Assembly (NCBI GenBank): GCA_963663225.1
Contig: OY760142.1
Location: forward strand, 416,001 to 480,000
DNA from: Nitrospirota bacterium
GTDB lineage: Bacteria > Nitrospirota > UBA9217
Length of the DNA: 64,000 nt
Reading direction: 5' to 3'
In this document: positions 35,174 to 60,223 of the stretch, piece by piece
Position numbering within the stretch: position 1 is the stretch's first letter
How the letters are laid out: each line of letters begins with the position of its first letter
Position numbers and translations under genes: made by a program
Notes under the pieces: generated by a model
Told to the model about the DNA's origin: nothing
The model's input: the letters and a program-made list of their open reading frames with translations, nothing else
Database searches by the model: none

Positions 35174-35213
35174 AAAATAAAAATCCCCAGTCTTCTCGAA
35201 AAGACTGGGGATT
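35174..35213 (-). terminator. riboswitch expression-platform terminator
   Basis: Stem AATCCCCAGTCTT/AAGACTGGGGATT plus T run; homologous to 27278-27318. Confidence 0.8.
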
Positions 35214-35267
35214 AATACGGAATATTAACCCACACATGGTCTTAACGCCGAAGACTGTGCGAGAACA

Positions 35268-35435: not shown

Positions 35436-35466
35436 TATGATTATTTTTCCTTATACCATACGGCAC

Positions 35467-37227: not shown

Positions 37228-37413
37228 ATCTCACCTTTTCACGTTGGTTCTCTTATTATAGAGTGAAAACAACTATACACCGAAAACTGGATATATTATA
37301 TATAGATGTGGCTTTAGTCCACTTTCTATTTTTCATTGGCGTACCAAATTTACTTGATTATAAGAATTTATCCGATTTATGTTTACAATTTTACGTATCG
37401 TCCAGAGAATATA

Positions 37414-38097: not shown

Positions 38098-38130
38098 TTT
38101 ACATGCTAGGGATTTTATTATTAATTAAAT

Positions 38131-38240
38131 CGGGCGACTATGGAGACAATGCAGGCGATATTTTAGTTAATGTCCTAGAAGAAATTACCGTTGTTGAAAA
38201 ACATCGCTGTTTTTTCTGCTTTGCATCTCATAGTCGCCCG
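38131..38240. repeat. long imperfect inverted repeat (about 110 nt)
   Basis: CGGGCGACTATG...CATAGTCGCCCG perfect 12-bp outer arms, with further imperfect inner pairing (GCGATATTTT/AAAACATCGC). Confidence 0.7.
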
Positions 38241-38282
38241 TGATACTGAACAACTTATCGTATTTAGCTGATAATTAATTTA

Positions 38283-39677
38283 TTACTTAACCCCTAACGC
38301 CGGATTCGGGTAATTTCTGTTAAATACATGACTTACGAGCATCACAGCGAGAGGAGTACATAATGCTATATACATGTTGTCAATTCCGAAAGGATTTCCC
38401 ATGGCAAACCATAGCGTCGTAAATATTACACTCAACACCAAGCCAATGGTTGCACCTGCTTTATTTCCAATTTGCGGGCCATAGAACATAAACAGAGCAA
38501 TAACCGCAACACTGGTGCGCAGCGCTCTCGCAAAAAAAACCGTCTTGAGCAATCCAGGCACATACAGCGCAAATGGTATGGGAAGCAATCCAAGTATTAT
38601 CGCTAATACTCTCACAATTACCATTTGGCGCTTCTCATCGGGCTTTGCCAGCGGAATAATGAAATCTCGCATCACTAAAGCGGTTGCACCAAGATTACAT
38701 GCCAGAATTGTCACAAATGCCACTGCCAAAATTCCTGACGTAACAAGACCACCTAACCATGGATTCATATATCTGAGAAACTCGGGTAATGCCTGAACAC
38801 TCTTGATCGTTGGAAATAGCACCTTCGCTGCCAATCCAATGTAAGCCGCAATAAATCCTAACGGGAGAAGCCAGAAACTTGCAAAGATACTAGCTTTTTT
38901 GGCATCTTTGGCACTGCTCAAGGAACTTATACTTTGGATCACATACTGAGTGGAAAAAACTGCCCCTATGTTTCCGACTGTCCAGGCTATAATTTGTGGA
39001 ATTCCAATGCCTGACATATCAAAAAAGGAATCAGGCAATACTGAAACCGTCAGGTTTCGCTCATGGAGCAAACCCCACGCTACCAGTGCAGTGACAATAA
39101 TCGCAACATATTTTACAAAAAAATGAATTAAGTTCGCAAATCCGACGCCCCGAATACCGCCTGCAGCGACGCTGGCCGTTGCTAAAAGTGAAATTATGAA
39201 AACCGCGGGCGTCGTGGAAATGCCCAACACAGATGCAACCACAACAGCGCCGGCGGTGTAAGCAACGACATTAACGGTTATTAAGGCATAGACCATTATG
39301 GCCGAAACTACCATTCGAGCGTTATCACCATATTTTTTGCTGATAATCCCCGATATCGTATATTCGCCTGTTTCGTTGTATTTACCAGCCAAAAGGTATG
39401 CATACAAGAGGAAACCTACAGCCAGCGATATAAAGTTCCACGAAGCAGAGATGCCTTTCTCAAATGCTACCTGAGATGTTCCCAACGTTGACGCTGATGC
39501 TATAAACTCAGAGACCAGAAGAATGCCGATAATATATACACCCATTTGATTCTTTGCGCTCATAAAGCTATTCGTATTTTTTGCATATTTGACGGACCAC
39601 ATGCCAACGAGCGTAGTTATTATCAGATAAACGACTGCTATGCCAAATATTATACCTGCACCATCTACCGCATTCAT
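38283..39677 (-). CDS. sodium:solute symporter (SSS) family transporter
   Basis: About 13 TM; GEYTISG..KKYG, AGGIRGVGFAN; GGAGGAGG RBS before MNAVD. Confidence 0.9.
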   Translation of the reverse strand: MNAVDGAGIIFGIAVVYLIITTLVGMWSVKYAKNTNSFMSAKNQMGVYIIGILLVSEFIASASTLGTSQVAFEKGISASWNFISLAVGFLLYAYLLAGKYNETGEYTISGIISKKYGDNARMVVSAIMVYALITVNVVAYTAGAVVVASVLGISTTPAVFIISLLATASVAAGGIRGVGFANLIHFFVKYVAIIVTALVAWGLLHERNLTVSVLPDSFFDMSGIGIPQIIAWTVGNIGAVFSTQYVIQSISSLSSAKDAKKASIFASFWLLPLGFIAAYIGLAAKVLFPTIKSVQALPEFLRYMNPWLGGLVTSGILAVAFVTILACNLGATALVMRDFIIPLAKPDEKRQMVIVRVLAIILGLLPIPFALYVPGLLKTVFFARALRTSVAVIALFMFYGPQIGNKAGATIGLVLSVIFTTLWFAMGNPFGIDNMYIALCTPLAVMLVSHVFNRNYPNPALGVK

Positions 39678-39964
39678 GAGTAACCTCCTCCACATCCATA
39701 AGGATGGTTCTGCTAGCGTATTATGCTAACAAAGTGTCGTATTGGACTACTCTTTAGCTGTTTGCAGATCGATACTTGCATTAATTAATAAAAAAATTGC
39801 AATACAGTACAAATAACCCTTGGGAAAGACTTTTCCACAACGAACGAAACTAATATTTTAAATACTCCTGATAGCCATTGCAACAATACCGTGATTCCGG
39901 TCCCTTTTTAAAATCCTATTTACGTCCTCCTTTCCCTATAAAATTATACTCTTAATATATTTAA

Positions 39965-40003
39965 TGTGTACCTAATGTATACAAAATGTATTAGTTTGTC
40001 AAG
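39965..40003 (-). promoter_or_regulatory. sigma70 promoter (TTGACA-N17-TACATT) overlapped by a TGTATACA operator
   Basis: TGTGTACCTAATGTATACAAAATGTATTAGTTTGTCAAG; 32 of 39 positions identical to 44763-44801. Confidence 0.75.
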
Positions 40004-40289
40004 GTTAAAATCGTCACTAAAGTTTTTTGATTTCTCTCGTTTGATTGACATTTGGGGGCATAATACGGCAGGGGCCAGACTCTTGGCAGGGCAATATGAT
40101 GTCTTTAAGCTAGTAAAACTAGTTTTTTACTTTCATACAAGTATTGTTCGCTTACGATGCATGATTATTTTTTACGCATGTATGGTACGAGAAGAGAAAT
40201 TCGGCAGGCAGGATTTGAAGTGAATTTTGACAATATCTGAGACACCAGTACGAATGTCCAGAAGACTTTTGAGATGTTGCCGAAGGATT

Positions 40290-40934
40290 TTATTGCTTAA
40301 ATATGTGGTGGTAATTTGCAGTATCCATTAAATCATGCATATTAGACTCGATGTGATAACGCATCTTATTTGAAGCCATTACGGGATCACCTGACAGAAT
40401 GGCATCAATAATCTGGAGGTGCTCTTCTAAAGAGCGATTTACTCTTCCAGGAATATATTCAGACGGATTGAGCAGCCGCACGATTTGGTTATTGAGGTTG
40501 TTCATAATAGTTATCAATCTTCTGTTGCCGGTGGCCTCAATAATAAGATGGTGCAAATCGTGAATATTCTCCGTATACGGTTGTTTTTTTTGTTCAAGAA
40601 GTTTTTTGGTTATTTTTTTTATTTCAAGAAGATCTTCTTTCTTAATTCTATTAACACATACTGCAGCTGCATAAGGCTCAAGCAGAAGACGTAGTTGAAA
40701 AATTTCATGAATATCAACGGGCGAAACAGTCGTTACTATCGCGCGATTATTGATAACGGTAATTAATCCTTCAGATTCGAGTCGAATCAACGCTTCGCGC
40801 ACAGGTGTGCGACTCATGTCGAGATTATCTACAAGCCACTTTTCGGTCACCGGGGAACCAGGTTTTAAGTCAGACTTGTAAATGGCATTTCTGATATAAT
40901 CATATGCAATTTTTACATTATTTTGACGTTTCAT
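40290..40934 (-). CDS. GntR/FCD-family regulator, paralog 2
   Basis: Same HTH (MSRTPVREALIRLESEGL) and FCD motifs as paralogs 1 and 3. Confidence 0.93.
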   Translation of the reverse strand: MKRQNNVKIAYDYIRNAIYKSDLKPGSPVTEKWLVDNLDMSRTPVREALIRLESEGLITVINNRAIVTTVSPVDIHEIFQLRLLLEPYAAAVCVNRIKKEDLLEIKKITKKLLEQKKQPYTENIHDLHHLIIEATGNRRLITIMNNLNNQIVRLLNPSEYIPGRVNRSLEEHLQIIDAILSGDPVMASNKMRYHIESNMHDLMDTANYHHIFKQ

Positions 40935-41089
40935 CTTTTGTCTTCACCTATGTACTAATGTAGCAAAATCATATGTATTTTTCAATAACAATTGCTTTCA
41001 ATATTTTACCGGTAGGCAATGCGCCTACCTTATCCGGTTGTTATCGTACACAATGGTTTTAAAAAGCCCGCATGCATTTCTAATCTGTT

Positions 41090-41128
41090 AAAAAAAAAGA
41101 AGCAACGTCCGAAATTGCACGTTGCTTC
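41090..41128 (-). terminator. intrinsic terminator closing the methyltransferase operon
   Basis: Minus strand GAAGCAACGT-loop-ACGTTGCTTC followed by T9. Confidence 0.8.
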
Positions 41129-41181
41129 ACAATAGTTACAGAACATTTTGGAGGCTAGAATCGTCTATCCGCTCGATTCAC

Positions 41182-42555
41182 TTAAGAAAGTGTCTTCAAT
41201 CCCATTCCTTTAAGTTCTTTTTTGACCGTTTGATAAATATTCGCGTACTCTTCCTTCGGCTGGTGATGAATCAGGTCATAGCAGTCAGTAATATCATAGC
41301 CGACAAGCGGCTGCCTATTTTCAAATTTCTTTGCAATGCGGCCGAGAAGTTCGTTTCCGCCCTCCCGGTCAAATCCCTGCTCTATGACGGCATCTGATAC
41401 TTCTATCATCCACTCGGCCTCAACGGGTGTTTGGCCATGGTTTACCGTCGTGCGGCAGTGCCGGGGAGCATAGAGATTCATACCATTAATAGGAGCTTCC
41501 ACCGATTGCATTGCTCCTTCCCAGAGGCAAAGATCAGTTCCCGGCCCTGATGTCGGGATCACCCACCGCATGCAGATCGTGTTGCTATACCGGTTAAGCG
41601 CCTGATTGACCACGGAACGTGCCCAGTTTACATTCGGAACCAGAATCTGACGGCCATTCAGCATATGAACATGTTCTACGCCCGTATAGTTTATGTAGTC
41701 TCTATATGCAATCATTGCAGCAATGGGTTTCGCTATACCTTCTATTATTGCTCCTTCAATCCCACCGCAGAACCCGCCGATAATGGCAAAACTGCCGCTG
41801 AGCCTGAATGGTCCATATTCCTCGAACACGATTGCCGCGGAAAGCATGTTTTGCTCCATTTTCAGATCCGGCAACAATGAGAGCAGCACCCCGTCTGTTG
41901 GGCGAAGACCGTTGTCGGGATCTATCGTTCCAATCAGGTCTTCAGCCCTCGTATTTATCGGATAATACACTACGGCCAGACCGGGGCGGCCGGCCTTTCT
42001 GACCCCTTCACGCATCCAGTTGATCTGACGCCGGGACGCGTAAACTTCCATGGGAGAGCCCATAATTTCTCTTCCGTCGACATGCGTGAAATTGAATCCT
42101 TCGATAAAATCCGTTCTCTGTATCTGCGCAAAATTATGCACAACGAGCCCGGCAAGATCCTCCGTAAAGGGGGTATGATGCCCTGGGCATACATTCAGTT
42201 TTTCCCTGCCTTCAATTTTTCTTTGCTTCCACACACGCCTATCCCGTCCGCAACCCATAAGTATTTCTGTCGGTGCTTCCTTGATTGCCGTCAAAATTTC
42301 GTCTCGTGTCAAGGCGACTCTGCGGCGCGTGGTAAGACAATATATACCCATTGTTTCTAGAAATTCCAGAGCAGCCTCGAAAGCTCTTTCCGGGAGTCCA
42401 TCATCCACATTAATATAGCGATGCTTCTTAGGAACGGTGATACCGTATTTTTTTACCATCTTGGTGATGTTTTCATAAAACATCTTATCCCACTGTTTAT
42501 CTTCGATTTTTTCACCAGTCTGTGTTCTCTCAGCAATTTCCAACAGTGTTAACAT
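41182..42555 (-). CDS. MtmB-family (monomethylamine:corrinoid methyltransferase-like) protein, pyrrolysine-free
   Basis: 457 aa with no in-frame stop; KKYGI, GIYCLTTRRRV, AGRPGLAVV (archaeal AGRPGMGV-Pyl-GPE), GGFCGGIEGA, GPGT, ITDCYDL. Confidence 0.88.
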   Translation of the reverse strand: MLTLLEIAERTQTGEKIEDKQWDKMFYENITKMVKKYGITVPKKHRYINVDDGLPERAFEAALEFLETMGIYCLTTRRRVALTRDEILTAIKEAPTEILMGCGRDRRVWKQRKIEGREKLNVCPGHHTPFTEDLAGLVVHNFAQIQRTDFIEGFNFTHVDGREIMGSPMEVYASRRQINWMREGVRKAGRPGLAVVYYPINTRAEDLIGTIDPDNGLRPTDGVLLSLLPDLKMEQNMLSAAIVFEEYGPFRLSGSFAIIGGFCGGIEGAIIEGIAKPIAAMIAYRDYINYTGVEHVHMLNGRQILVPNVNWARSVVNQALNRYSNTICMRWVIPTSGPGTDLCLWEGAMQSVEAPINGMNLYAPRHCRTTVNHGQTPVEAEWMIEVSDAVIEQGFDREGGNELLGRIAKKFENRQPLVGYDITDCYDLIHHQPKEEYANIYQTVKKELKGMGLKTLS

Positions 42556-42569
42556 GTAATCCTCCGTCC

Positions 42570-43238
42570 TTATTCAACCGATAATAGTTTTTTTGCCACT
42601 TCTACTGCTTCAATGGCGTCTTTTCCGTATCCATCAGCACCAATTTTGGCGGCATATTCTTTTGTGACAGGTCCCCCTCCAATCATTACTTTAAAACGAT
42701 CCCGAAGCCCCATACTTGCCAGGTCGTCAATAACTTCTCTCTGGTAAGGCATTGTGGTCGTTAAAAGCGAGGACAGTGCTATCATATCGGCATTTAGGTC
42801 TTTAGCTTTTTCAATAAATGTGGCACTCGGAACATCGACGCCAAGGTCTACAACCTGGAATCCGCCGGCTTTCAACATCGTGGATACGAGATTTTTGCCT
42901 ACGCTGTGCACATCGGCCTGCACCGTTCCTACGATGATAATTTTTTTCCTTTGAGCGTCCGCTTTTGATATGTTTTTTTCCAGCACTTTGCTTACCGTAT
43001 CCATCAGGTCGCCGGATATGACCAATTGCGGCAAATAGTATTCGCCTGAATCGAATTTCTCTCCTACGACGATGGCGGCATCTGCAATGGCATACCGAAT
43101 TGCCACTGATGGGTCAACACCAGCCGCCAGCACTTTTTCAGCCGCCGCTACTGCGTCTTCTTCATTCAGGTCGATAATCGCCGACTTCAATGCGTCCAGC
43201 AGTGTCCGTTCTTTTTCCGATAATTTTTTCGCATCCAT
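42570..43238 (-). CDS. corrinoid (B12-binding) protein, MtmC/MttC-like
   Basis: GEKFDSGEYYLPQL cap; GTVQADVHSVGKNLV (DxHxxG); SSLLTTT; IGGGP; GADGY. Confidence 0.95.
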   Translation of the reverse strand: MDAKKLSEKERTLLDALKSAIIDLNEEDAVAAAEKVLAAGVDPSVAIRYAIADAAIVVGEKFDSGEYYLPQLVISGDLMDTVSKVLEKNISKADAQRKKIIIVGTVQADVHSVGKNLVSTMLKAGGFQVVDLGVDVPSATFIEKAKDLNADMIALSSLLTTTMPYQREVIDDLASMGLRDRFKVMIGGGPVTKEYAAKIGADGYGKDAIEAVEVAKKLLSVE

Positions 43239-43256
43239 AATTCAAACCCTCCTGTT

Positions 43257-44639
43257 TTATTTTCTAAAATTCAAGCCCATGTCGCCCAGTTCTTTTTTGA
43301 CTTCATCATATATGTTCTGATATTCAGGAATCGGCTGTAAAGTTCTTTGATCATACAATTTTTCAAACACGTCGCCGGCCGGAGCATTTTGGAGATTATT
43401 TTCGTATTTGCTGAGGAGGAATTTGACGATTTTTTCCGCCGTTTTTCTGTCAACACCGGCGCTGGCCTTGCATACCTCACCCATCCAACGAGACTCAAGC
43501 GGTGTTCCATAATTACAGGTGTTGCCGACTACATATTTTCTTGTCCCCTCAGTTGAGTGTGCACCCATGACGGTTGATACGAGAAAACCGGCGGCAGCTT
43601 CGTACAAATATTGCTTGGTTCCCGGACCGGCAGCCGGATGGTCACCCATGCAGCCGACAATCATCAATTTTGTATTGCGGCTCATTCCTTGAATGGCAGT
43701 TCCTGCTACCCACAATTCGGCGCGGGTAACCCTGCTTTTGATACGCGATTCAACAGCTCCGCAGCGGAAGCACATTGCCTTATGAACTACGAGAAGCTGG
43801 AGTGCTCCGGCTACCGAAACAATTGACGCACCTTCTGTCGTCCCAGAAAAACCGCCTATAACGGCACTATGCGTTCCATGAATTGGAATATCCTGTGCCA
43901 ATCCGTATGCAGTCCGGCAAAGGTCATCGTAGGCAACCTTTAATTCCGACATTCCGGTCGATTCAATGAAGTCTGAACGCCTCAACCCATTTTGTTCATC
44001 AAACATTGCAATCGTAGCGGGAGCAGTTGGCGCATTACTAATTGTTATCATCCCGGGTCTGCCGGCCGCTTCTACCGCCCGCCGCATAATGGAAATTGTC
44101 TTGCTGTATTGATATATTTCCGAGGGAGTGCCAGCTACTACATCATATTTTCCATCAATATCAAGAAGTATTCCACCCCAAATACCATCCACGCAGCGGT
44201 CTTCTGCACAAAGCTTATAGATGGTAAACATCTTCGATTCGTCGCTGTATGGAGTCGTCTGAATCCCCGCAATTACTATAGGATTCTCAGTTCCCTCCAC
44301 AGACCGATGCTCCATCTTGACTTTGTCCGCTCCTTGTCCAAGCACAATTGACTTGGGACATGCGGCTATTTCATCATCCAGTTCCTTTTCGGTTACTTTA
44401 ATTGCTCTTCGTGTCGTCGTCGAGTACGTACCCACTGAAAGAAACAATTCACGGCCTGCCTGGTATACTCGGTCTGCCAAATCTCCCGTTTTGTCAAGTG
44501 GGTTCTCCGGATCATACTTGATACCGTACTTCTTCTGGAGTTCCTGAGTTTTTTTAAAAATTGACATATCAAACTGTTTTTCTTCTAAAATTGGGCCTTC
44601 TTTAGATCTTTGAAGAATATCGAATAATGGCAGTCTCAT
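43257..44639 (-). CDS. second MtmB-family methyltransferase, pyrrolysine-free
   Basis: 460 aa with no in-frame stop; KKYGIKYD, LADRVYQAG, AGRPGMITI, GGFSGTTEGA, AGPGT, TPLESRW, FEKLYD. Confidence 0.88.
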   Translation of the reverse strand: MRLPLFDILQRSKEGPILEEKQFDMSIFKKTQELQKKYGIKYDPENPLDKTGDLADRVYQAGRELFLSVGTYSTTTRRAIKVTEKELDDEIAACPKSIVLGQGADKVKMEHRSVEGTENPIVIAGIQTTPYSDESKMFTIYKLCAEDRCVDGIWGGILLDIDGKYDVVAGTPSEIYQYSKTISIMRRAVEAAGRPGMITISNAPTAPATIAMFDEQNGLRRSDFIESTGMSELKVAYDDLCRTAYGLAQDIPIHGTHSAVIGGFSGTTEGASIVSVAGALQLLVVHKAMCFRCGAVESRIKSRVTRAELWVAGTAIQGMSRNTKLMIVGCMGDHPAAGPGTKQYLYEAAAGFLVSTVMGAHSTEGTRKYVVGNTCNYGTPLESRWMGEVCKASAGVDRKTAEKIVKFLLSKYENNLQNAPAGDVFEKLYDQRTLQPIPEYQNIYDEVKKELGDMGLNFRK

Positions 44640-44762
44640 TCAGATCCTCCTTTTAGATTTCAAATTTTACTAAAAGTGCATTGAACAGTTCATATATCCT
44701 ATCCTGTAGATATGTTCATTCACCCCCCCTCTATTTAAATCGGCCCAGCGCGTTACACATAT

Positions 44763-44801
44763 TGTGTACTTAATGTATACATAAAGTATGTAATTGTCAA
44801 G
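44763..44801 (-). promoter_or_regulatory. sigma70 promoter (TTGACA-N17-TACATT) overlapped by a TGTATACA operator
   Basis: TGTGTACTTAATGTATACATAAAGTATGTAATTGTCAAG upstream of the methyltransferase operon. Confidence 0.75.
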
Positions 44802-45045
44802 CAAAAAAATACTGCTCTTTTGCAGGCAAAACCTATAGTTTTCTAGTATCTTATATCTGGTTTTTTTGGTAGCAGAGAGACAGTTGTGCGACTTGGAGAA
44901 TTACAGACGGCATTTGATGGGTTATTTTAGAGCGGATGAGATAACAGGGAGCGGCGTCTGTGCAATAGTTGTTCTTTCCAAGATGTTAACAAAGAATATG
45001 AGCGACTTGCGATAATTCCACGACGGCTTTATCCTATCCAAGCGC

Positions 45046-45618
45046 TTATGTATTGCCTTTTAAATAAATGTCAGTGTCAATACATTGCACGCCAATGTTT
45101 TTCATATCAAGAATATTGGCGTCCGCGACTTCCTTTGTCTGTGCAGATGCGGCATCAGTGACTAATATAACCTCGTAATCGAGTGCCACTCCATCGAATA
45201 CTGTTGTTCTCACGCAAACCGGATATTGAGTGCCGCAGACCACGATTGTTCGTATTCCGAGTCTGCGCAATATAAAATCCAGTTCAGTATTCATAAAGCT
45301 GCTGTACCGGTTTTTCATGATTCTATATTCACCCGCCAGCGGCTTAAGCGCCTCAACGATTTCACATCCTTTGGTTCCGGGCACGCAATACTTTTTACCG
45401 TTTAAAAAAGCTTTCTGACGTGTTATTTCTATGTCGGATCCATCTTCGCGATATTCTCTCATTATGTAGATAACCGGCATTTTTTGCTCTCTAAATCGAT
45501 TGAGAAGCTTTTGAATTTCCGGGATGGTGGCCATAGCACCGGCTATGCATGCCGGCGCACCCGGCAAAACGAAATCATTCTGCATATCTACAATAATCAA
45601 AGCACTCTTATTAGGCAT
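45046..45618 (-). CDS. isochorismatase-family cysteine hydrolase (amidase-like)
   Basis: Asp-Lys-Cys triad in IVDMQNDF, KNRYSSF and GTQYPVCVRTT. Confidence 0.92.
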   Translation of the reverse strand: MPNKSALIIVDMQNDFVLPGAPACIAGAMATIPEIQKLLNRFREQKMPVIYIMREYREDGSDIEITRQKAFLNGKKYCVPGTKGCEIVEALKPLAGEYRIMKNRYSSFMNTELDFILRRLGIRTIVVCGTQYPVCVRTTVFDGVALDYEVILVTDAASAQTKEVADANILDMKNIGVQCIDTDIYLKGNT

Positions 45619-45672
45619 TAGATTCTCTCCATGTTTGTGCAATATTTTCGCGGAATATAAAGAAATCTATTT

Positions 45673-46581
45673 TCAGGTATTAACAGATACTTTGGCATTT
45701 GTCTGATTAGCAATCATGTGCGCAACTTCATCAACCAGAGACATATTCGGAGGATTAACATTTATCAACTCATATTTTTTCCCGAGCTTTTCATATTTGT
45801 CGCTCCCAAGACGATGGTACGTTAGTAAATCAACAAAGTTAATATTCTCATTGTTCACAATTTTGATTATTTTATCATAAAAATCATGATCCATGTTAAA
45901 CCCAGGTATAATGGGTATCCGTAAAATAAGATTTTTTTTAATGGCTGATAGTTTGGATAAATTGTCAATTATTTGGTCGTTGTTTACTCCTGTGCTCTCA
46001 AGGTGCTTTTTTCTATCAAGATGCTTAATATCAAATAAAACCCAATCGAGCAACTTGCATAATTCCTGGATAACATCCCAGGGACCAATTCCGGATGTTT
46101 CAATTGCAGTGTTAATCTCATTCTCTTTTAATTGCTTTAATAGATCGAACAGGAATTCCGGTTGAAAAAGCGGTTCACCGCCTGAAATAGTTACCCCGCC
46201 GCCGGAAGTTTGATAGAACAATCTGTCGGCTTCAACTATATTCAGTATTTCCTTTGCGGTCATTTCTTTTCCCAAAATCTGGAGGGCCGTCGTCGGGCAC
46301 TGCGTCGCACACACACCGCACTTGCTGCATCGATCTCGGTCTATGCTCACTCGTTTGTCACGCGTTACGGTTACTGCTGCAATTGGACAGACGGCTACAC
46401 AACCACCACAGTCAATGCATAGTTTTGCATCATAAATAATTTCCTTTTTTCCGCTTTGCGATTCCGGATTGCTGCACCATCTGCAGTGTAGCGGGCAACC
46501 TTTCATGAATATGACTGTTCTTATACCGGGCCCGTCATGCAAGCAAAATTTTTGTATATTAAAAATACAGCCCTTTATCAC
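45673..46581 (-). CDS. glycyl-radical enzyme activating enzyme (radical SAM with 2x[4Fe-4S] insert)
   Basis: HDGPGIRT, GCPLHCRWCSNPE, two ferredoxin motifs, GGGVTISGGEP. Confidence 0.96.
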   Translation of the reverse strand: MIKGCIFNIQKFCLHDGPGIRTVIFMKGCPLHCRWCSNPESQSGKKEIIYDAKLCIDCGGCVAVCPIAAVTVTRDKRVSIDRDRCSKCGVCATQCPTTALQILGKEMTAKEILNIVEADRLFYQTSGGGVTISGGEPLFQPEFLFDLLKQLKENEINTAIETSGIGPWDVIQELCKLLDWVLFDIKHLDRKKHLESTGVNNDQIIDNLSKLSAIKKNLILRIPIIPGFNMDHDFYDKIIKIVNNENINFVDLLTYHRLGSDKYEKLGKKYELINVNPPNMSLVDEVAHMIANQTNAKVSVNT

Positions 46582-46602
46582 TTCTTATACCTCCGCAGGC
46601 CG

Positions 46603-49038
46603 TCACACGTTATGCGAACCAGACTCATGCTCTGTTCGTTTGATAATATCTTCCTGTAAAACGGGATCTATTGTTGTGAATAGTACGCTAAAACCTGCAA
46701 CTCTTACGGTAAGTGTAGGGTAGCGTTCTGGATGTTTCATTGCCTCTCTCAGGGTCTGCGCATCTATTACATTAAACTGAACATGCTGCCCTTTCATTAT
46801 AAAATATGTTTTTACCAAGTCGCATATTTTTGAAAAACATTCACCCTGAAGGAGCGAAGGATTAAGTTTTACATTGAGAAGCGTACTTCCTATTGCTTTC
46901 TGAGGATCAAGTTTTACAACGGATTTAAGCAAGGCAGTCAACCCGCTTTTATCCATTCCATGTGAGCAGGATACCCCTCCATCCGCTATTACGGTGCCCT
47001 TTTTTCTTCCATCCGGCGTAGCTCCGGTCCAACGGGCAAAAAGCACATTTGTTGCTATTGTGTAAAGCGCTATATTGTATTTACCGCCTCTGGGATTTTT
47101 ATGCTTGGCCGCTTCTATACAGAGTTGATTTAATACGCGGTTTCCGAGCGAATCAACGTAATCTATGTCGTTGCCATATTTGGGGACTTGATTGATCAAC
47201 TTCAGCCGGAAGCTCTCTGATCCTTCATAATCAGCCAACAAGGTTTTTTTGAAGTCATACCACGTAAGTGCCCTATCTTCATAAATATACTTTTGAATGA
47301 CTGCCAACGAGTCTGCGACATTCGCTACCCCGACCGCCTCCAAGGTTGTAAAATTATACCTGGCTCCGCCCTCAAGTGAACTTTTTCCATTGTGCATGCA
47401 ACCATCTATTAAAACAGATTCAAAGGGCGTGGGACAGAGGGCTCCATGCAATCGGTCCAAAATATTGTCGCAGGCTATTTGTAAACCCAGATAATGTCCG
47501 AGTTGTTTAAAATATGCATTCAGGAAATCATCGAAAGTTGATGCATTACTCACATCGCCCGTATTAAAATCATATTGTTTCTTCAGTACGGGATCGTATC
47601 CATTGAAAATCGTAAGCTCCAGAATTTTAAGCAGATTTAAAAACCCACCGGTTAACCATGGCTCTGTAACACCTGGGACCGTACTTTCGGTACAGCCGAC
47701 TACAGCGTAATTGCGCGCGTCTTCGATGGTATAGCCGAGTTGAAGCATATTCGGTATAAGCACTTCATCATTAAACATTGCTGGCATTCCACCGCCATAC
47801 GAAATCACCCGAAGAGCATGATTCAAAAAATCTTCTGGACACCCTGAGAACCAACGCATTGAGAGCGATGGTTGTGGAAGACCAACCCGTGCGGTAGTTT
47901 CCAAACAAAGGTGGGAAAGCTCATTTACTGCACTCGTTCCCTCCTTAGTTTGTCCGCCTAAGATCAGGTTCTGAAACATAGGATATCCGCCAAAAGCAAC
48001 CGTTGATATTTTATCTCTAACCTTATTGATTTCGAAAAATTTCAGCCAAAGGCATTGCACGAGTTCTTCTGCGTTTTTTTCAGATGCAATCCCGTTGTCC
48101 AGACTGTGCCTGTAGGACGGATACATGTATTGATCGAATCGACCCGGTGATACGCTATGCCCGTTTGATTCAAGGTGCAGTATTAAGTGCACGAACCAAA
48201 AACTCTGCAGTGCCTCCCAAAATGATCGCGCAGGATATGCGGGGACTATTTTGCAATTTTGCGCTATATCATACAGCTCTTTTTTCCTGCGTTCATCTTT
48301 TTCAGCTTCTGCCTTTTTTTCAGCCAATATTGAAAATCGCTTGGCAAAATTTATTGCCGCAGAGCATACGATGGCTACAGCATCGTAATAATTTGCCTTG
48401 TCTACGTAATCTTTATCATCTATGCTCAGCGTCTTTTTCTGTCGTTCCGCTTGTTCAATAAAATATTGAAGACCTTTTTTTATACACTGCTCATAATCTA
48501 CAACAACATGCCCTACGCCAGATCTAAAAGCTGTCAGTATAAATATTAAATCTTCTGCTGCTTCCTTTGCTTGTTCTGGAATTACTCTCAAAGCATTGCT
48601 TGTTATGGTGTTTACATCCCACTTCTTATATATTTCCCGGAGCTTTTCTTTAGTTTCTTCACTTATATAAAATTTATCAGCAACTCTGCCATTAAATGAG
48701 TCCAGCTCATCAATGACAAATTTCATATCATACTCAGGAAATATTTGACAACCCCGTGGTTTTCCAGCGTAACTGCCGACAATAAGTTCATCATCATTAA
48801 TACAGATGTTCATATTGTTTAATATTTTTTCAAGGGCTTTAGCTCTCCGTATGATATACGGTTGGCCGGCAGTTTCGAAATAACTCGCTGTTATTAGCAA
48901 TGCCCGATCTGCAAAAATTTCGGGCACCGTATTGAGCATAAACTCTCTGAGCTTTCTGATCCTATCAGAGACACTATCTGTTATCTTATTCCTACTAGAT
49001 TTGTTTTCTAAAGAATCATGAGATGTAAGGGTTGTCAT
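46603..49038 (-). CDS. glycyl radical enzyme, eliminase (diol dehydratase-like) class, substrate unknown
   Basis: Gly loop VRVAGFS; single-Cys loop VVGCTES; GVGHVVVDY; ESNGHSVSPGRFDQY; FGGYPMFQNL. Confidence 0.93.
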   Translation of the reverse strand: MTTLTSHDSLENKSSRNKITDSVSDRIRKLREFMLNTVPEIFADRALLITASYFETAGQPYIIRRAKALEKILNNMNICINDDELIVGSYAGKPRGCQIFPEYDMKFVIDELDSFNGRVADKFYISEETKEKLREIYKKWDVNTITSNALRVIPEQAKEAAEDLIFILTAFRSGVGHVVVDYEQCIKKGLQYFIEQAERQKKTLSIDDKDYVDKANYYDAVAIVCSAAINFAKRFSILAEKKAEAEKDERRKKELYDIAQNCKIVPAYPARSFWEALQSFWFVHLILHLESNGHSVSPGRFDQYMYPSYRHSLDNGIASEKNAEELVQCLWLKFFEINKVRDKISTVAFGGYPMFQNLILGGQTKEGTSAVNELSHLCLETTARVGLPQPSLSMRWFSGCPEDFLNHALRVISYGGGMPAMFNDEVLIPNMLQLGYTIEDARNYAVVGCTESTVPGVTEPWLTGGFLNLLKILELTIFNGYDPVLKKQYDFNTGDVSNASTFDDFLNAYFKQLGHYLGLQIACDNILDRLHGALCPTPFESVLIDGCMHNGKSSLEGGARYNFTTLEAVGVANVADSLAVIQKYIYEDRALTWYDFKKTLLADYEGSESFRLKLINQVPKYGNDIDYVDSLGNRVLNQLCIEAAKHKNPRGGKYNIALYTIATNVLFARWTGATPDGRKKGTVIADGGVSCSHGMDKSGLTALLKSVVKLDPQKAIGSTLLNVKLNPSLLQGECFSKICDLVKTYFIMKGQHVQFNVIDAQTLREAMKHPERYPTLTVRVAGFSVLFTTIDPVLQEDIIKRTEHESGSHNV

Positions 49039-49247
49039 TTATCCCTCCACTATACAAGCATGCGACGTTCAGGCTCGTATTTGATTACAGATTCATAGAC
49101 ATAATCGTTTGCAAATATTCGTTTAAAAAAATCGCCGAATAGTTTACATTTATTCCACCCTGAGTAGCAATCGTCCTCATGCCGACCAGCCTCGCTTTTC
49201 TTACTGTTACTCAGCTATAGACCAAGACGAATTTGCCTTATGACTTA

Positions 49248-50267
49248 TTAGATGGCTGCCGCCTCTTTCGCTTTCGCAAGATCATAAGCAACCTCGATAC
49301 AAATATGCTCTTGACCTTCCGTGCATTGCCGCTTGCCTATCTCCTTGATAATATCTCGTGGATCTACACTATACTTAGCTCCTGCTCGTTGTGCAAACAA
49401 AAGAAAGCTAGAATAACATCCAGCGTAGCCGAGCATGATACGATCATTATCCAACTCCATTGGTCTAACCATCAAAGGCTTTAAATATTTGTCTCCTACA
49501 TCCATTGCCTTGTACAAATCAATTCCCGTTTCTATCCCTTTTCGATCACAGACTGCCACAAGCACCTCTGTCGGACAGTTCCCCGCGCCTGCACCGAATC
49601 CCTTCAAACAAGCATCGATATATTCTGCACCTGCCTCGATCGCAGCCATTGAATTGGCCACTGCAAGTTGAAGATTGTTATGTCCATGGAAGCCTATTCC
49701 AACGTCCAGTGCTTTACGCATTGCAGATATTCGTTCGAAAACCTGTTCTGGCAGCATATAGCCGCCGCCGTCAAGCAAATACACGACTTCTGCACCGTAG
49801 GACTCGGAAAGCCTGGCATAATGGACCGTATCTTCAACACTAATCACTGAAGCACAGGGCAAGACGGCTCTCGGTTGCATTCCTAATTGTTTTGCCATCT
49901 TTATGTGCTGTTCTGCAATATCACTCTCTGTAATTTGGGTGCATAATCGAGCAACTTTGACGCCATAATCTACCGCCATTTGCAGTTCTTCCCGTGTGCC
50001 AATACCAGGCAGAATAATAATTCCTAACTTTGTCTTCTTAACCGCCTGGGATACTGCTTTGATATAGTCTATATCGCGGGCTGGGGCAAAGCCATATTGA
50101 AATGACGATCCAGCCAAACCGTTTCCATGTCCAAATTCAATTACGTCTACACCTATTTCATCAACTTTTCCTGCTAGCTGTGCCATTTGTTCCGGCGATA
50201 GTTGATGGCTTACGGCATGCATTCCATCCCGCATTGTGACATCCAGGATCCGAATTTTTTTTGACAT
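49248..50267 (-). CDS. dmpG: 4-hydroxy-2-oxovalerate aldolase (DmpG/MhpE family)
   Basis: DVTMRDGMH, HGNGLAGSSFQYGF, HGHNN, GAGAGN, GYAGCYSSFL; GGAGG RBS before MSKK. Confidence 0.92.
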   Translation of the reverse strand: MSKKIRILDVTMRDGMHAVSHQLSPEQMAQLAGKVDEIGVDVIEFGHGNGLAGSSFQYGFAPARDIDYIKAVSQAVKKTKLGIIILPGIGTREELQMAVDYGVKVARLCTQITESDIAEQHIKMAKQLGMQPRAVLPCASVISVEDTVHYARLSESYGAEVVYLLDGGGYMLPEQVFERISAMRKALDVGIGFHGHNNLQLAVANSMAAIEAGAEYIDACLKGFGAGAGNCPTEVLVAVCDRKGIETGIDLYKAMDVGDKYLKPLMVRPMELDNDRIMLGYAGCYSSFLLFAQRAGAKYSVDPRDIIKEIGKRQCTEGQEHICIEVAYDLAKAKEAAAI

Positions 50268-50281
50268 CGTATGCCTCCAGG

Positions 50282-51166
50282 TTAGTTTAAGGTTTGTTTT
50301 AAAAGATTTCGCGCTAGACCATCGCCGACAGCCATTGCAGCGCATGTCATGATATCAAGATTTCCACTATATTTTTGCAAATAATCACCTGCTCCCTCTA
50401 CTTCGATCATGACTGTCACCTTGTCGCCGTCAAACGTGGGAGGAATTTTAAGTCGATACCCTGGCACATACTGTTGAACAGCTTTTATCATATCTGCTAC
50501 AGATCGAGTTATGCCCGCTTCGTCTTTATTTTCTACCTTCGCGTAAATTATGCAGTTCATGGTCATTGGTGGAGTTGCCGGATTAAGCAGGATAATTGCT
50601 TTCCCTTTTTCTGCGCCTCCTATCTGAACTATCCCTTTTGCCGTTGTTTGTGTAAACTCATCAATATTCTGGCGAGTGCCCGGGCCGGCACTTTTGCTTG
50701 CGATTGTAGATACTATCTCTGCGTATGGAACGGCGCATACGCGGCTGATTGCTTTTACGATTGGTATAGTAGCCTGTCCGCCACAGGTAATTAAATTAAC
50801 ATTCTGTGCAGAAAGGTGTTCATCAAGATTAACAACCGGGATTACATAAGGTCCGACAGCTGCCGGGGTCAAATCCACCGCGATCTTTCCCGCTTCCTTG
50901 AGAAGAGGTGCATGTTTTGTATGCGGTGCGGCACCTGTCGCGTCAAAAACAATTTTAATATTCTTTTGCTGAATAACTGAATCTATCCCAGCGGCCGATG
51001 TAGCTATACCCTCCTGCTTCGCAATTTTTAAGCCCTCCGACTCTGGAATTATTCCTGCCATTAACTTCAAGTCAAGGTACCGGCTTCGTCGTAATATTTT
51101 AAACATAAGATCGATACCGATGTTGCCCGGACCAATAATAGCTGCTTCAACTTTTAGGTTATCCAT
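50282..51166 (-). CDS. dmpF: acetaldehyde dehydrogenase (acylating), DmpF/MhpF family
   Basis: IGPGNIG, DLTPAA, catalytic Cys in [30 protein letters not shown]. Confidence 0.95.
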
Positions 51167-51322
51167 TGCTTATTTCTCCAGTATTGTTTGACTTCTTTAT
51201 AACAAGTTTGCCAGATGGATAAAAAATGATTGCTGCCTCAACATTAACGACGTGGCGACTCAAATTTCAGTACCGCATGTTAACATTGAGACAGCAATGA
51301 CACATTTGAATGCAGTTCCGTA

Positions 51323-52681
51323 CTAAGGAGAAAGTTCCTCTAAAACTCTTCCTTTTGTTTCTTCTCCCAATATTCCTATAGCAACAGCTGTTATTATGAA
51401 ACAGCCGGCGCCAAAAATAAATACTCCCGTATTTCCTACGTGCGGCAAAATTGCTCCAATCAGAGCAATGCCTAGTAACGACCCTATGCGACCTACTCCT
51501 GAAGCAAAGCCTGATCCAGTTGTTCTTGCTCTCGTCGGATAAAGTTCTGGAGTATACGCATAAACCGTTGACCATGTACCCATCATGAAAAATTGCATAC
51601 AAGATCCAAATATGATCAGGGTTGACATACTCCCGGCATTACCGTAGAGATAAGAAAAGAATGCACATCCAAGAAGTGCGACTATTACAGAGGGTTTACG
51701 ACCAATTTTTTCAACTGTGTAGGCTGCCGTTATAAATCCCGGTATGCCGGCTAACGAAATTGCAATTGTGTAGTAAACGGATTTCGTGACCGAGAAACCA
51801 GCTGCCTGCAATAACGTACTCAACCATGTCGTTAATGCATAATAACCTAAACAAAATCCAAACCACATTATCCATACCATTACCGTTCTTTTTGCATATC
51901 CAGGCGCCCAAAGCATGAGAAATGAAAATTTTTGCTCTTTTTTACGATGCGAGTATTCTACTTCTGGAATCGGAGGAAGTTCTTTTCCATAGGCCTTCTT
52001 TACTTTATTCTCAACCAGGCTCATAACTTTTTCCGCCTCGTCATGTCGGCCTACATCATCCAGCCATCTGGCAGATTCCGGTACTATTCTTCGAAAGAAA
52101 AAAATAAATATAGCCGGAATTGCTTGAGCAATAAATACCCAACGCCAACCGCCTATTGGCAAAATGAAATATGCCTCTAAACCTGCAAAAATAAAGCTGA
52201 TGGGCCACAGTCCTTCAAGTAGGGCAATATAACGGCCTCGGTTCTTGGCTGGAATATACTCAGATACTAAAGCTTGTCCTATTGGAAATTCCATTCCTAT
52301 ACCAAAACCTAGTATTACTCTGTATATTCCTAGTTCAAATGGCGTGCTTGCAATTGAACAGAGAAAACTAGCCGTTCCCCATATGAGCATACTTACTTGG
52401 AATATTGTGCGACGCCCGTAACGGTCTGCTGCCATGCCCGCGAGCGCTGCACCTACAGCCATGCCCCAAAAACTCGCACTTGCTAAAACACCTGCTTCCG
52501 CTGTGCTTAAGCCAAATTCAGTCTTGATAGATCCCAAAAGAAATGTAAGGGAAGCTAAGTCAATCGCATCAAACAGCCAACAGGTAACGATTGCACTAAA
52601 TATTAACTTCTGATAAAAAGTTAATGGCAACCTTTCCATCCGCTGTGCAATTCGAAGATTTATTGTCTGCGTTTGCGGCAT
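51323..52681 (-). CDS. MFS metabolite:H+ symporter (aromatic acid/NiaP-like)
   Basis: ADRYGRR, SEYIPAKNRG, VPESARWL, YAYTPELYPTRAR; 12 TM. Confidence 0.92.
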   Translation of the reverse strand: MPQTQTINLRIAQRMERLPLTFYQKLIFSAIVTCWLFDAIDLASLTFLLGSIKTEFGLSTAEAGVLASASFWGMAVGAALAGMAADRYGRRTIFQVSMLIWGTASFLCSIASTPFELGIYRVILGFGIGMEFPIGQALVSEYIPAKNRGRYIALLEGLWPISFIFAGLEAYFILPIGGWRWVFIAQAIPAIFIFFFRRIVPESARWLDDVGRHDEAEKVMSLVENKVKKAYGKELPPIPEVEYSHRKKEQKFSFLMLWAPGYAKRTVMVWIMWFGFCLGYYALTTWLSTLLQAAGFSVTKSVYYTIAISLAGIPGFITAAYTVEKIGRKPSVIVALLGCAFFSYLYGNAGSMSTLIIFGSCMQFFMMGTWSTVYAYTPELYPTRARTTGSGFASGVGRIGSLLGIALIGAILPHVGNTGVFIFGAGCFIITAVAIGILGEETKGRVLEELSP

Positions 52682-52937
52682 TATCTTTTCTCCTTAATTT
52701 TTTCAATTAGTTGTATAAAAAATGGTAATATACAACACATCAAGGGATGCTTCTACACTCTTATCAAAACATCTGTTACTTTGAATGCTATTTCTTAAAA
52801 AATAAATATCTTAAATTTCAGACTTTACCTCCTTTCTGATAGACCGAAACACTTTTTTCTGTTTTATCTGTTCTGGCGGTTTATCATGAAGCATTTATGG
52901 TCTAACAGTTTTATTGCATTTACTTCTAACAATCATT

Positions 52938-53005
52938 TACTGTATACTGTATACAATATTGTATACAGTATACGCATACAATACACTTTTATTCTTATTT
53001 GTCAA
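52938..53005 (-). promoter_or_regulatory. tandem TGTATACA operator array with TTGACA -35
   Basis: TACTGTATACTGTATACAATATTGTATACAGTATACGCATACAATAC: palindrome centred on AATATT with repeated GTATAC units; TTGACA at 53000-53005 on the minus strand. Confidence 0.75.
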
Positions 53006-53521
53006 GTCTCTTAGTCTAGAGAAAGTTGTCAATATGTGCACGTTAAATTATTTAATTAAATCAATCGATTATTAAAAAAACGGGGCTTGCCAGGAAGGAT
53101 TAAAATTAACTAACTACGCCGAACATATTTCATCAGGTTGAGGATTGGAAGAAATTTTTAGGTTTTTTTGTTGCGTCTGGGTGCTTCTGTATCTCTATAT
53201 TCCTTAATAGCTCCTTTCAGTAAATCGTATTAATAAACAAGGTGGTCTTTAAAGCGAAAGCTCTGCTATGAGTTCCAGCATAAAGCTACCGTTAACATTT
53301 CACCAAGTCTGTACCAATATACAAATTAGTAAATTACAAGCAGTATGAGTTGTTCCACTATGGATTCAGTGCACTCTTTCACTTAACAAGTAACCGAAAA
53401 TACTATCTATGAAGTACTCTGATAATATTTTCGATGCCATAATTTATTGAGAAAATTGATTATCATTGTAATGTAAAATCTATTCTGCTAAAATAAAAGA
53501 ACTTATAACGGAGGACAAAGC

Positions 53522-54169
53522 TTGGGGAAAATATTAAATAATGGGCAATTTGCTTATAAATATATTAGGGATGCAATTTGCCGGTGGGATTTAAAACCAG
53601 GTTCTCCTATCACAGAAAAATGGATCCGAGAAAATCTTGATATGAGCCGTACCCCAGTGCGTGAAGCATTGATCCGCCTTGAATCCGATGGCTTGATCAC
53701 GGTTACTAACAATCGTGCAACAGTAACTACCGTTTCTTTCGAAGACATTAATGATATTTTCCGTCTGCGTCTTCTTCTTGAGCCTTATGCAGCCAGTGCC
53801 TGTATCAAACGGATTGCTAAAGAAAAACTCATCGAAATTCGTAAGGCAACCGTTGAATTGCTTCCTCAGAAAAGCCAAACATTTGATGAAAATATCCATG
53901 ACCTTCATCGCTTTATTATTGATTCAACGGGAAACAAAAGATTAATCGCCTTCATGAAGACGCTTGATTACCAGATCATGCGGCTCTTACACGTTTCGGC
54001 ATATATACCAAATAGAGTAACGCATTCTTTAGAAGAGCATCTTCCAATTATTGACGCTATTTTAGCAGATGATCCAGCAATGGCAGAAAAGCAAATGAAA
54101 ATCCATATTGAGTCTAATATGAAAGATGCATTAGAGTCCGCAAATTTTCTTTTTTTATTTAAAACATAA
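53522..54169 (+). CDS. GntR/FCD-family regulator, paralog 3 (divergent from the GRE operon)
   Basis: MSRTPVREALIRLESDGL; HDLH..TGN, SLEEH, HIESN; GGAGG RBS with TTG start. Confidence 0.93.
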   Translation: MGKILNNGQFAYKYIRDAICRWDLKPGSPITEKWIRENLDMSRTPVREALIRLESDGLITVTNNRATVTTVSFEDINDIFRLRLLLEPYAASACIKRIAKEKLIEIRKATVELLPQKSQTFDENIHDLHRFIIDSTGNKRLIAFMKTLDYQIMRLLHVSAYIPNRVTHSLEEHLPIIDAILADDPAMAEKQMKIHIESNMKDALESANFLFLFKT

Positions 54170-60148: not shown

Positions 60149-60223
60149 GGCTCCAATTCTTAAAAGAGAAAATAATTATTTGTCCGGGATTCTTTGCAGC
60201 AAGGCCAGCTTCACGTGCAGCGA

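Follow-up and report, generated by a model that had tools for sequence, protein, structure and literature searches.

Eliminases among the glycyl radical enzymes (GREs) have earlier revealed unexpected anaerobic metabolism of choline, hydroxyproline, sulfonates and anhydro-sugars, and entire GRE clades are described as lacking validation in the sections of the June-2026 GRE review on which we draw. The eliminases and isomerases named in those sections are glycerol dehydratase (GD), propanediol dehydratase (PD), HpfG, HypD, HpyG, HpzG, CutC, IslA/IseG, HpsG, HplG, YbiW and PflD, and the CXE motif is given as class-defining. In the GD mechanism set out there, E435 deprotonates the C1 hydroxyl of glycerol and H164 protonates the leaving C2 hydroxyl. 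Here we describe a GRE gene of a Nitrospirota bacterium, located in a 64,000-nucleotide stretch of contig OY760142.1 (the window). Its sequence places it in what appears to be a new functional clade of GRE eliminases with a new operon logic, which we call clade A.

The best match of the window GRE in sequence and fold is the GD of Clostridium butyricum (PDB 1r8w/1r9d), with which it has an adjoining cognate activase in common. The two differ in context: GD belongs to a glycerol/1,3-propanediol operon, whereas clade A enzymes are accompanied by dmpF, dmpG and an anion transporter. The PDs of Roseburia inulinivorans (5i2a/5i2g) and Raoultella planticola GRM3 (9rco-9rcr) gave 687 and 678 bits with the GRE. 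The entry 9rco/9rcp is the R. planticola GRM3 enzyme, and these PDs are microcompartment enzymes. PD keeps the WHDAA motif and the glycyl radical enzyme microcompartment (GRM) context, both of which are missing from the window GRE or its genome. HpsG (a sulfolyase) and HpfG (a dehydratase) are also GRE eliminases; their substrate, 2,3-dihydroxypropane-1-sulfonate, is an anionic C3 diol. The sulfonate anchor of HpsG-type enzymes is Arg-Gln-Arg according to the same review sections. The window GRE has T-I-A-T with no Arg in the segment corresponding to GD 641-644, where the second anchor Arg is placed by numbering offset only. The anhydro-sugar-phosphate isomerases YbiW and PflD (35-37% identity, TM-score 0.91-0.95) fall in a different clade; their product is handed, in the review's account, to an FSA-type aldolase and not to one of the DmpG type. 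Sections 5.6, 5.7 and 7 of the review mention no enzyme of the clade A type, and a search of the full-text literature, which did not cover subscription journals, found in the records listed and in some passages no GRE functionally tied to DmpG or to 4-hydroxy-2-oxoacids.

Family assignment and structure model

The original prediction, made from the sequence alone, had proposed at 46603..49038 a GRE with a diol-dehydratase-like scaffold, an altered active site and a new substrate. The open reading frame of 811 aa was confirmed; it lies on the minus strand, which had not been stated. The features of the gene and of its activase are the following:

46603..49038, minus strand: GRE of clade A (the 'EPWLTGGF' clade) of the GD/PD-like 1,2-eliminases, 811 aa; assigned by open reading frame and translation, Pfam and alignment
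47641..47697, minus strand: Cys loop and next segment, residues 448-466 (GCTESTVPGVTEPWLTGGF); from the alignment to 1r8w and the positions that separate the clade from GD/PD
46687..46704, minus strand: glycine loop RVAGFS, residues 779-784, with G782 as the radical site; motif search and alignment
45673..46581, minus strand: radical SAM activase of the GRE, 302 aa, which follows the GRE gene after 21 nt; TIGR02494 365.8 bits (cut-off 174.35), Radical_SAM and ferredoxin-type cluster domains

The protein belongs to the GRE superfamily by its PFL-like (PF02901, 743.1 bits) and Gly_radical (PF01228, 99.9 bits) domains. The only NCBIfam model that it passed was the broad subfamily TIGR01774 (763.5 bits, cut-off 678.2). 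It missed the equivalog models for PflD/YbiW-type enzymes (641.8 bits, cut-off 1109), HypD (615.4, cut-off 1100), HpsG (559.9, cut-off 1000), HpfG (554.8, cut-off 1000) and CutC (493.9, cut-off 1050), as well as those for the indoleacetate (437.8, cut-off 1100) and HPA (345.2, cut-off 1150) decarboxylases. There was no GD equivalog model among its NCBIfam matches.

A structure model, which had been suggested as a check, was built with AlphaFold on 74 clade sequences (mean pLDDT 92.3, pTM 0.93). A TM-score of at least 0.9 was reached with more than 40 GRE structure entries. GD and PD were the nearest (TM-score 0.94-0.97). Superposition on 1r8w gave TM-scores of 0.94/0.97 and a root-mean-square deviation of 1.3 Å over 785 columns at 44% identity; the PDs 5i2g and 9rco/9rcp gave 43% identity, TM-scores of 0.94-0.97 and 1.3 Å. 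Identity to the other characterised GREs was 27-37%.

Comparison of the active site with glycerol dehydratase

The residue map was made with C. butyricum GD (1r8w) as the reference (731.8 bits; query residues 23-804, chain residues 9-785). The catalytic set of GD is kept in the GRE: H177 corresponds to H164, H294/S295 to H281/S282, Y352 to Y339, C449 to C433, E451 to E435 and Y659 to Y640. The His, His-Ser and Tyr segments named in the original prediction are present as GVGHVVVDY (174-182), ESNGHSVS (290-297) and FGGYPMFQNL (349-358), with H177, H294/S295 and Y352 aligned to GD. The CXE motif is formed by C449-T450-E451, aligned to C433-V434-E435, and the Cys loop contains a single Cys, as had been claimed.

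The altered segments are GCTES (448-452), EPWLTGGF (459-466) and ALYTIAT (657-663). In the original prediction they had been compared with the GD motifs GCVEP and EGWHD, the latter with an active-site Asp, and the computed alignment to 1r8w bore the comparison out. Around the Cys loop the changes from GD to the GRE are V434T (T450), P436S, G444P (P460), H446L (L462), D447T (T463), S448G (G464) and A449G (G465). Elsewhere N156 is replaced by T169 and P641-S642-S643-I644 by T-I-A-T, where PD has Val and the GRE has Ile (I661) at the position of S642. The residue following the glycine-loop Gly is Phe (F783) in the GRE and Tyr in GD/PD, and there is an extra Gly at position 687 relative to GD/PD. 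The combination of N156 with W445-H446-D447 that marks GD-type enzymes is not found in the GRE, which has T169 and W461-L462-T463. We take N156, H281, S282, Y339, D447 and Y640 to be residues of the GD pocket.

Clade A and its relatives

A search of 5.8 billion proteins provided 120 listed matches, which were aligned with the query (121 sequences) and grouped by the Cys-loop segment. Among the matches listed, clade A comprises 83 sequences including the query, with 50-99% identity to it and the signature GC[TS]E..EPWLTGGF with ALY[ST]. The GD/PD signature (GCVEPQ..EGWHDAAFF with GLYPVSANVP) was found in 27 sequences of this set, and a third signature (GCVEPQ..EG[FY]Y.GGF with GLQSIS), defining clade C, in 11.

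The altered residues are a property of the clade. T169 in place of GD N156 and L462 in place of H446 are each found in 83/83 clade A sequences, T463 in place of D447 in 81/83, the remaining two having Pro; L462, G464 and G465 are invariant across the 74 aligned clade A sequences. Conversely, 27/27 GD/PD-like sequences among the 120 matches listed keep N...WHDAA. Positions conserved to at least 90% in clade A and conserved as a different residue in GD/PD (given in brackets) include T169 (N), P460 (G), L462 (H), T463 (D), G464 (A) and G465 (A); further clade-specific positions at this threshold are A657 (G), the inserted G687 and F783 (Y). Because they are conserved across the whole clade, the differences from GD are not due to chance. 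The overall change of the pocket, with loss of an acidic side chain and gain of hydroxyl side chains and a Gly-Gly stretch, would fit binding of an anionic group.

Phylogenetic analysis led to the same division. The FastTree tree was calculated from 113 full-length sequences, after removal of eight fragments, with the HpsG of the same genome as outgroup. All 75 full-length clade A sequences formed a monophyletic group on a long stem (node support 0.56 after rerooting), sister to clade C (support 1.0), and the GD/PD clade was separate (0.996). When the clade A profile was run against 1.84 billion representatives clustered at 50% identity, one full-length representative scored 1295 bits and the next protein 915 bits. 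The best 150 of these representatives included two with the clade A signature (one of them a fragment), three with that of GD/PD, two with that of clade C and 143 with other Cys-loop signatures; uncharacterised GRE clades are therefore common, and clade A is one well-contextualised case among many.

Proteins of clade A carry source names from Desulfovibrio sp. 3_1_syn3, Peptococcaceae, Desulfosporosinus, Syntrophobacter-like bacteria, Feifaniaceae, Oscillospiraceae and Ruminococcaceae metagenome-assembled genomes (MAGs). The distribution across phyla is patchy: the clade was present in 2/401 sampled genomes of the window's phylum, Nitrospirota, both of one genus. In the class of the Desulfitobacterium MAG the profile had matches in 6/112 genomes, one of which (G438) encodes a protein 47% identical to the GRE that falls outside clade A.

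Clade C, whose loci include the metagenome contigs L017, L020-L025, L027-L034 and L059, resembles clade A in the loss of D447, the GG stretch, the RVAGFS glycine loop and the adjoining TRAP transporter genes. Unlike clade A, it keeps V434 and P436, has Gln in place of Y640, and shows dmpFG in 0/17 loci. A 2-oxoacid-dehydrogenase-like E1a/E1b/E2 set was found in 2/5 clade C loci examined (L020 and L022). These two also carry xylose-isomerase-like, KduI/IolB, SDR, GFO/IDH/MocA and 3-hydroxyisobutyrate-dehydrogenase-like genes, of types common in acid-sugar or inositol pathways.

Taken together, the CXE motif with the intact catalytic set, the missed equivalogs, the separate clade and the distinct context support the prediction of an eliminase for a new substrate, an activity read from sequence. 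It is highly probable that the enzymes of clade A are as yet uncharacterised eliminases and that their substrate is neither glycerol nor propanediol.

The dmpF-dmpG-GRE-activase cassette

The window GRE is preceded on the same strand by dmpG, dmpF and a transporter gene. The genes of the cassette and beside it, other than those of the GRE and its activase, are:

51323..52681, minus strand: MFS transporter, first gene of the cassette; MFS_1/Sugar_tr
50282..51166, minus strand: DmpF-type acylating acetaldehyde dehydrogenase; TIGR03215 438.5 bits (cut-off 282.25)
49248..50345, minus strand: DmpG-type 4-hydroxy-2-oxovalerate aldolase; TIGR03217 436 bits (cut-off 286), HMGL-like and DmpG_comm domains
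45046..45642, minus strand: hydrolase of the isochorismatase family, which follows the activase gene after 30 nt; PF00857 147.9 bits, no equivalog reached
53522..54169, plus strand: GntR/FCD-family protein, divergent from the cassette, candidate regulator; GntR and FCD domains

DmpG is likely to start near 50267, since its homology begins at residue 27. Compared with 1nvm it keeps R17, D18, H21, H200, H202 and Y291, and positions 88 and 90 are occupied by Ile and Leu. DmpF matches 7z3s with 362.7 bits and keeps the Cys-containing TCGGQAT segment. The best NCBIfam match of the MFS transporter was the aromatic acid/H+ symporter subfamily (267.5 bits, under the cut-off of 418.55). The isochorismatase-family hydrolase was found elsewhere only in same-genus loci (L001 and L090) and in no other clade A locus, and is probably a lineage-specific addition to the cassette. 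The GntR/FCD protein is a candidate regulator by position. Scanning 44400-53700 for promoters and for terminators produced about as many predictions as expected from shuffled sequence (25 against 24.2 and 7 against 6.8, respectively); the ends of the operon are not defined by them.

The claimed lack of microcompartment genes held for the whole genome. No match to the bacterial microcompartment (BMC) shell domain PF00936 was obtained in the genome (3.26 Mb, 99% complete); the same search was positive in 2/14 control genomes. Pfam scanning of 22 window neighbours revealed no BMC or pdu genes, and no 1,3-propanediol dehydrogenase or pdu/GRM genes were found beside the GRE in the Pfam/NCBIfam scan of the neighbours.

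Conservation of the context was studied in 109 loci, which came from a genome collection, from a metagenome collection queried with the alignment of the clade, and from whole-genome searches. The loci were scanned by tblastn with the window proteins and the domains of the cassettes were checked by Pfam. In all 16 other clade A loci with upstream DNA (L001, L003, L004, L010-L016, L018, L019, L026, L099, L100 and L101), dmpG lies directly upstream of the GRE gene in the same orientation. They come from Nitrospirota, Desulfitobacteriia, Oscillospiraceae and metagenomes, and some are related: L001 is from the window's genus, L010 and L011 are near-identical, and L100 and L101 are close. dmpF was seen in 14/16; the contigs L019 and L026 end before it. 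Two further clade A loci, L002 and L047, are too short for the dmpFG context to be judged. At loci with a GRE of at most 49% identity, many of them on short contigs, dmpG or dmpF was found in 0/76. The active site of DmpG is also conserved: 11/11 clade A-linked sequences examined keep R17, D18, H21, H200 and H202 and have hydrophobic residues at positions 88 and 90, and 10/11 keep Y291, which is Phe in L015. One protein (P0079, 909 aa, HMGL-like and PFL-like domains) joins the N-terminal part of DmpG to a clade A GRE, so that the dmpG-GRE adjacency is again visible. It was rejected as a natural fusion: the out-of-frame junk linker marks it as an assembly or gene-calling artefact.

The transporter belongs to different families in different loci. 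TRAP DctPQM genes are present in L003, L099, L010, L013 and L014, an Opp-type ABC system in L015, and an MFS transporter of the window type, 72% identical across phyla and there following the activase, in L100 and L101. As regulators, L003 and L099 have a CitA/DcuS-like kinase and a response regulator, L100 has a CdaR-type protein containing a 'sugar diacid recognition' domain, and L014 and L047 have sigma-54 activators. Additional genes are variable: a PfkB kinase (L011, L012), an iron-containing alcohol dehydrogenase (L010/L011, L015), an FSA-like aldolase (L010, L015), a PTE-family hydrolase (L012), an esterase (L015), a 2-hydroxyacid dehydrogenase (L011) and an FGGY kinase with a GlcD/CCG oxidoreductase (L013). 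An NCBIfam equivalog was reached by none of the 19 accessory and binding proteins scanned. The minimal cassettes L099 and L100 have no catabolic gene besides dmpF, dmpG, GRE and activase.

Identity between the window and the Desulfitobacterium-type loci was 72-76% for DmpG, 70-73% for DmpF, 72% for the MFS transporter and 57-63% for the GRE. The higher likeness of DmpG, DmpF and the transporter between phyla would fit transfer of the cassette as a unit. Clade A appears to work inside a mobile five-part cassette made up of an organic-anion transporter, DmpF, DmpG, GRE and activase.

The cassette of Desulfitobacterium hafniense DCB-2

The proteins of L099 are letter-for-letter identical with entries of D. 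hafniense DCB-2:

ACL19298: DctP binding protein
ACL19300: DctM
ACL19301: DmpF
ACL19302: DmpG
ACL19303: GRE, annotated with 796 aa
ACL19304: activase

According to Supplementary Table 2 of PMC9888536, ACL19298 and ACL19300-ACL19304 were all detected in the proteome, with 234 (ACL19298), 168 (ACL19301), 198 (ACL19302), 115 (ACL19303) and 22 (ACL19304) peptide-spectrum matches. The cassette is therefore made as protein. In the columns examined, the same table gives log2 changes of at most about 0.54 over six growth conditions. A look-up of RNA runs for the window's organism listed none.

The TRAP binding protein of the D. hafniense-type cassette was modelled (pLDDT 88.2). Its nearest neighbours were lactate- and alpha-keto-acid-binding proteins (2zzx/2zzv, 2hzl and 7ug8; Z 36.5-36.9, 309-333 residues aligned), whereas binders of uronate, sugar acids and sialic acid reached Z values of at most 32.4.

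Proposed reaction

Several lines of evidence argue for a carboxylate on the substrate: the one acidic residue of the pocket and H446 are lost, Thr/Ser side chains are gained at 169, 450, 463 and 660 together with the Gly-Gly stretch, the transporters are of organic-anion types and the regulators are of types that sense acids. We consider a hydroxy-carboxylate to be the probable substrate. A direct elimination, as in GD, is favoured by the retained Cys/Glu/His machinery. Since L099 and L100 have no other catabolic enzyme, the GRE must connect the imported compound with DmpG and DmpF in one step. The simplest assumption is therefore that a 4-hydroxy-2-oxoacid is formed directly by the GRE. This identity of the product is proposed tentatively.

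The whole scheme, which we put forward with the same reserve as the product, would run as follows. The activase would install the radical on G782, from where it would pass to C449. The thiyl radical would take a hydrogen atom from the hydroxyl-bearing carbon of a small imported hydroxy-carboxylate. As in the mechanism proposed for GD, E451 would then deprotonate that hydroxyl, and H177 would protonate the leaving group on the neighbouring carbon. For a 4-hydroxy-2-oxoacid to be formed, hydrogen would have to be abstracted at C2 of a 2-hydroxy acid and the C3 substituent, most simply OH, would have to be lost; the leaving group would most likely be the hydroxyl at C3 of an acid of the tetronate, 5-deoxypentonate or 6-deoxyhexonate type, with hydroxyls at C2, C3 and C4 or a similar pattern. 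DmpG would split the resulting 4-hydroxy-2-oxoacid into pyruvate and a short aldehyde, which DmpF would oxidise to acyl-CoA. The hydrophobic residues at positions 88 and 90 of the clade A-linked DmpG proteins, whose role we take to be the one known from work on BphI, suggest a small, non-charged aldehyde. The fold neighbours of the modelled TRAP binding protein would be in keeping with a hydroxy acid, and the clade C context, with TRAP genes and E1a/E1b/E2 in 2/5 loci, fits the scheme as well.

Other observations weigh against this scheme. No conserved new Arg or Lys was found at the clade A pocket positions; position 172 is often R/K, with Gly in some members, and I661 aligns with the Val of PD and not with the Ser of GD, as would be expected if its neighbour were non-polar. 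Between the clade A loci the accessory genes vary, and they name no single substrate. The likeness of the TRAP binding protein to the acid binders is at the level of the fold only (18-21% identity), and L010 has a DctP of a second type. The small changes in the D. hafniense proteome reveal no inducer. Moreover, enolase-superfamily and IlvD/Edd dehydratases dehydrate 2,3-dihydroxy acids without radicals, so a GRE is not chemically required for such a step.

The main caveat comes from a second dmpFG pair. Exactly two DmpG genes of the genome exceed the equivalog cut-off and both go with a GRE-activase pair, the second one following it. This second operon lies outside the window (G000:C1:1634981-1640557; positions 8970-14582 of L102, minus strand). 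It has the order sigma-54 regulator, HpsG, activase (HpsH), dmpF and dmpG (413 and 391 bits), with a sulfonate-type ABC transporter divergent from it. HpsG was identified by NF048011 (1549.6 bits, cut-off 1000); like the clade A GRE it has an activase and dmpF-dmpG as neighbours, at only 33% identity to the GRE. The HpsG-activase-DmpF-DmpG order was seen in 1/3 other HpsG-like loci of the phylum (G363, locus L108; G309 and G238 lack it). The products of HpsG are hydroxyacetone and sulfite in the review sections cited above, not a 4-hydroxy-2-oxoacid. As they offer no obvious DmpG substrate, the task of DmpFG in these organisms may be a more general one, the handling of aldehydes behind GREs.

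Alternative explanations

A general role of DmpFG keeps alive the explanation that the GRE acts as a lyase, of the diol-dehydratase or the X-CH2-CHOH type, and releases a free short aldehyde, such as acetaldehyde, propanal or the carboxy-aldehyde from glycerate or 3,4-dihydroxybutyrate. DmpF would oxidise the aldehyde directly, and DmpG would be only an obligate partner or act on a side product. The whole diol-handling residue set of GD/PD is kept, I661 resembles the Val of PD, dmpFG follows HpsG both here and in G363, where a 4-hydroxy-2-oxoacid is not expected, and the iron-containing alcohol dehydrogenase encoded beside dmpF in L010/L011 has lactaldehyde reductase as its best match (328.7 bits, below the cut-off of 523). 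However, DmpG is retained in 16/16 loci with intact catalytic residues in the 11 sequences, apart from the Tyr291 to Phe change in L015, which is hard to explain for a passive partner. The BMC or PduP/EutE-type dehydrogenase described for other aldehyde-forming GREs is not present here, and the cassette transporters are organic-anion types. We therefore regard release of a free aldehyde as possible and rather unlikely. Even less probable is a divergent glycerol or 1,2-propanediol dehydratase. GD and PD are indeed the nearest solved structures, but the N...WHDAA positions that are invariant in the 27 GD/PD-like sequences are all replaced, the genome lacks BMC shell genes, no 1,3-propanediol dehydrogenase or pdu/GRM genes adjoin the GRE, and clade A is separate from GD/PD in the tree; these facts make it very improbable.

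An improbable, though less remote, explanation is that the GRE, like YbiW, PflD and HplG, is an isomerase or lyase that opens a ring or cleaves an ether or amine; it would act on a cyclic or substituted carboxylate and feed the opened product to DmpG. GRE isomerases share the CXE motif and pass their products to aldolases, as the review sections describe. The loss of D447 (to Thr) is common to clade A and clade C, which also has no Asp there; FSA-like aldolase genes are found near the cassette in L010 and L015, and lactonase/esterase-type hydrolases in L012, L015 and the window. With YbiW, PflD and HplG the GRE shares only 32-37% identity, compared with 43-44% for GD/PD, and the score with the PflD/YbiW-type model is far below its cut-off (641.8 against 1109 bits). 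Nor could we conceive of a natural cyclic acid that would give a 4-hydroxy-2-oxoacid in one such step.

Possible implications of the proposed reaction

The preferred scheme, elimination from a hydroxy-carboxylate to a 4-hydroxy-2-oxoacid, has a wider form. With E1a/E1b/E2 at clade C loci and DmpG at clade A loci, both sister clades are followed by 2-oxoacid-consuming enzymes. It is conceivable, if doubtful, that clades A and C form a new functional class of radical alpha-hydroxy-acid (sugar-acid) dehydratases, which would abstract hydrogen at C2 of a 2-hydroxy-carboxylate to give 2-oxo-3-deoxy acids. They would take the place of the enolase-superfamily and IlvD/Edd-type dehydratases in strict anaerobes, and they would feed an aldolase and acylating dehydrogenase (clade A) or a 2-oxoacid dehydrogenase (clade C). 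If this is true, a radical, non-phosphorylative route would lead from acid sugars to pyruvate and acyl-CoA, encoded on a cassette moving between phyla.

Clade A is cleanly marked by its sequence signature, and its fixed operon logic leads to the prediction of pyruvate and acyl-CoA as products. It is spread over Nitrospirota, Desulfitobacterium, Peptococcaceae, Desulfovibrio and gut Oscillospiraceae, with expressed orthologues in D. hafniense DCB-2, which is cultured and non-pathogenic. The substrate acid is directly testable through these orthologues, with the cognate DmpFG as a built-in NADH read-out.

Other features of the window

Directly downstream of the cassette, at 35467-44639 on the minus strand, two MtmB-family proteins (283.5 and 211.5 bits) flank a corrinoid protein; genes for a GntR regulator, a sodium:solute symporter, a DUF1638 protein and a RACo-type corrinoid activase follow. 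The first MtmB homologue is full length, has no in-frame stop and carries Ile where MtmB1 (1l2q) has pyrrolysine. From their sequences, these genes look like a non-pyrrolysine methyltransferase system. An MtaA/CmuA-like gene is located inside the clade A cassette of L010/L011.

The base composition swings within 20001-36000: the GC content is 0.35-0.39 at 20-28 kb and 0.52-0.56 at 30-36 kb, compared with about 0.42-0.47 elsewhere in the window. Hopanoid side-chain genes occupy 59000-63949 on the minus strand: hpnI (313.4 bits, cut-off 310), hpnJ (587.7, cut-off 577.6), an hpnA-like epimerase gene (403.8, cut-off 367.65) and an hpnK-like gene (215.3, below 232.6). They adjoin mlaA and genes for a glycogen/maltodextrin phosphorylase and an outer-membrane phospholipase A1.

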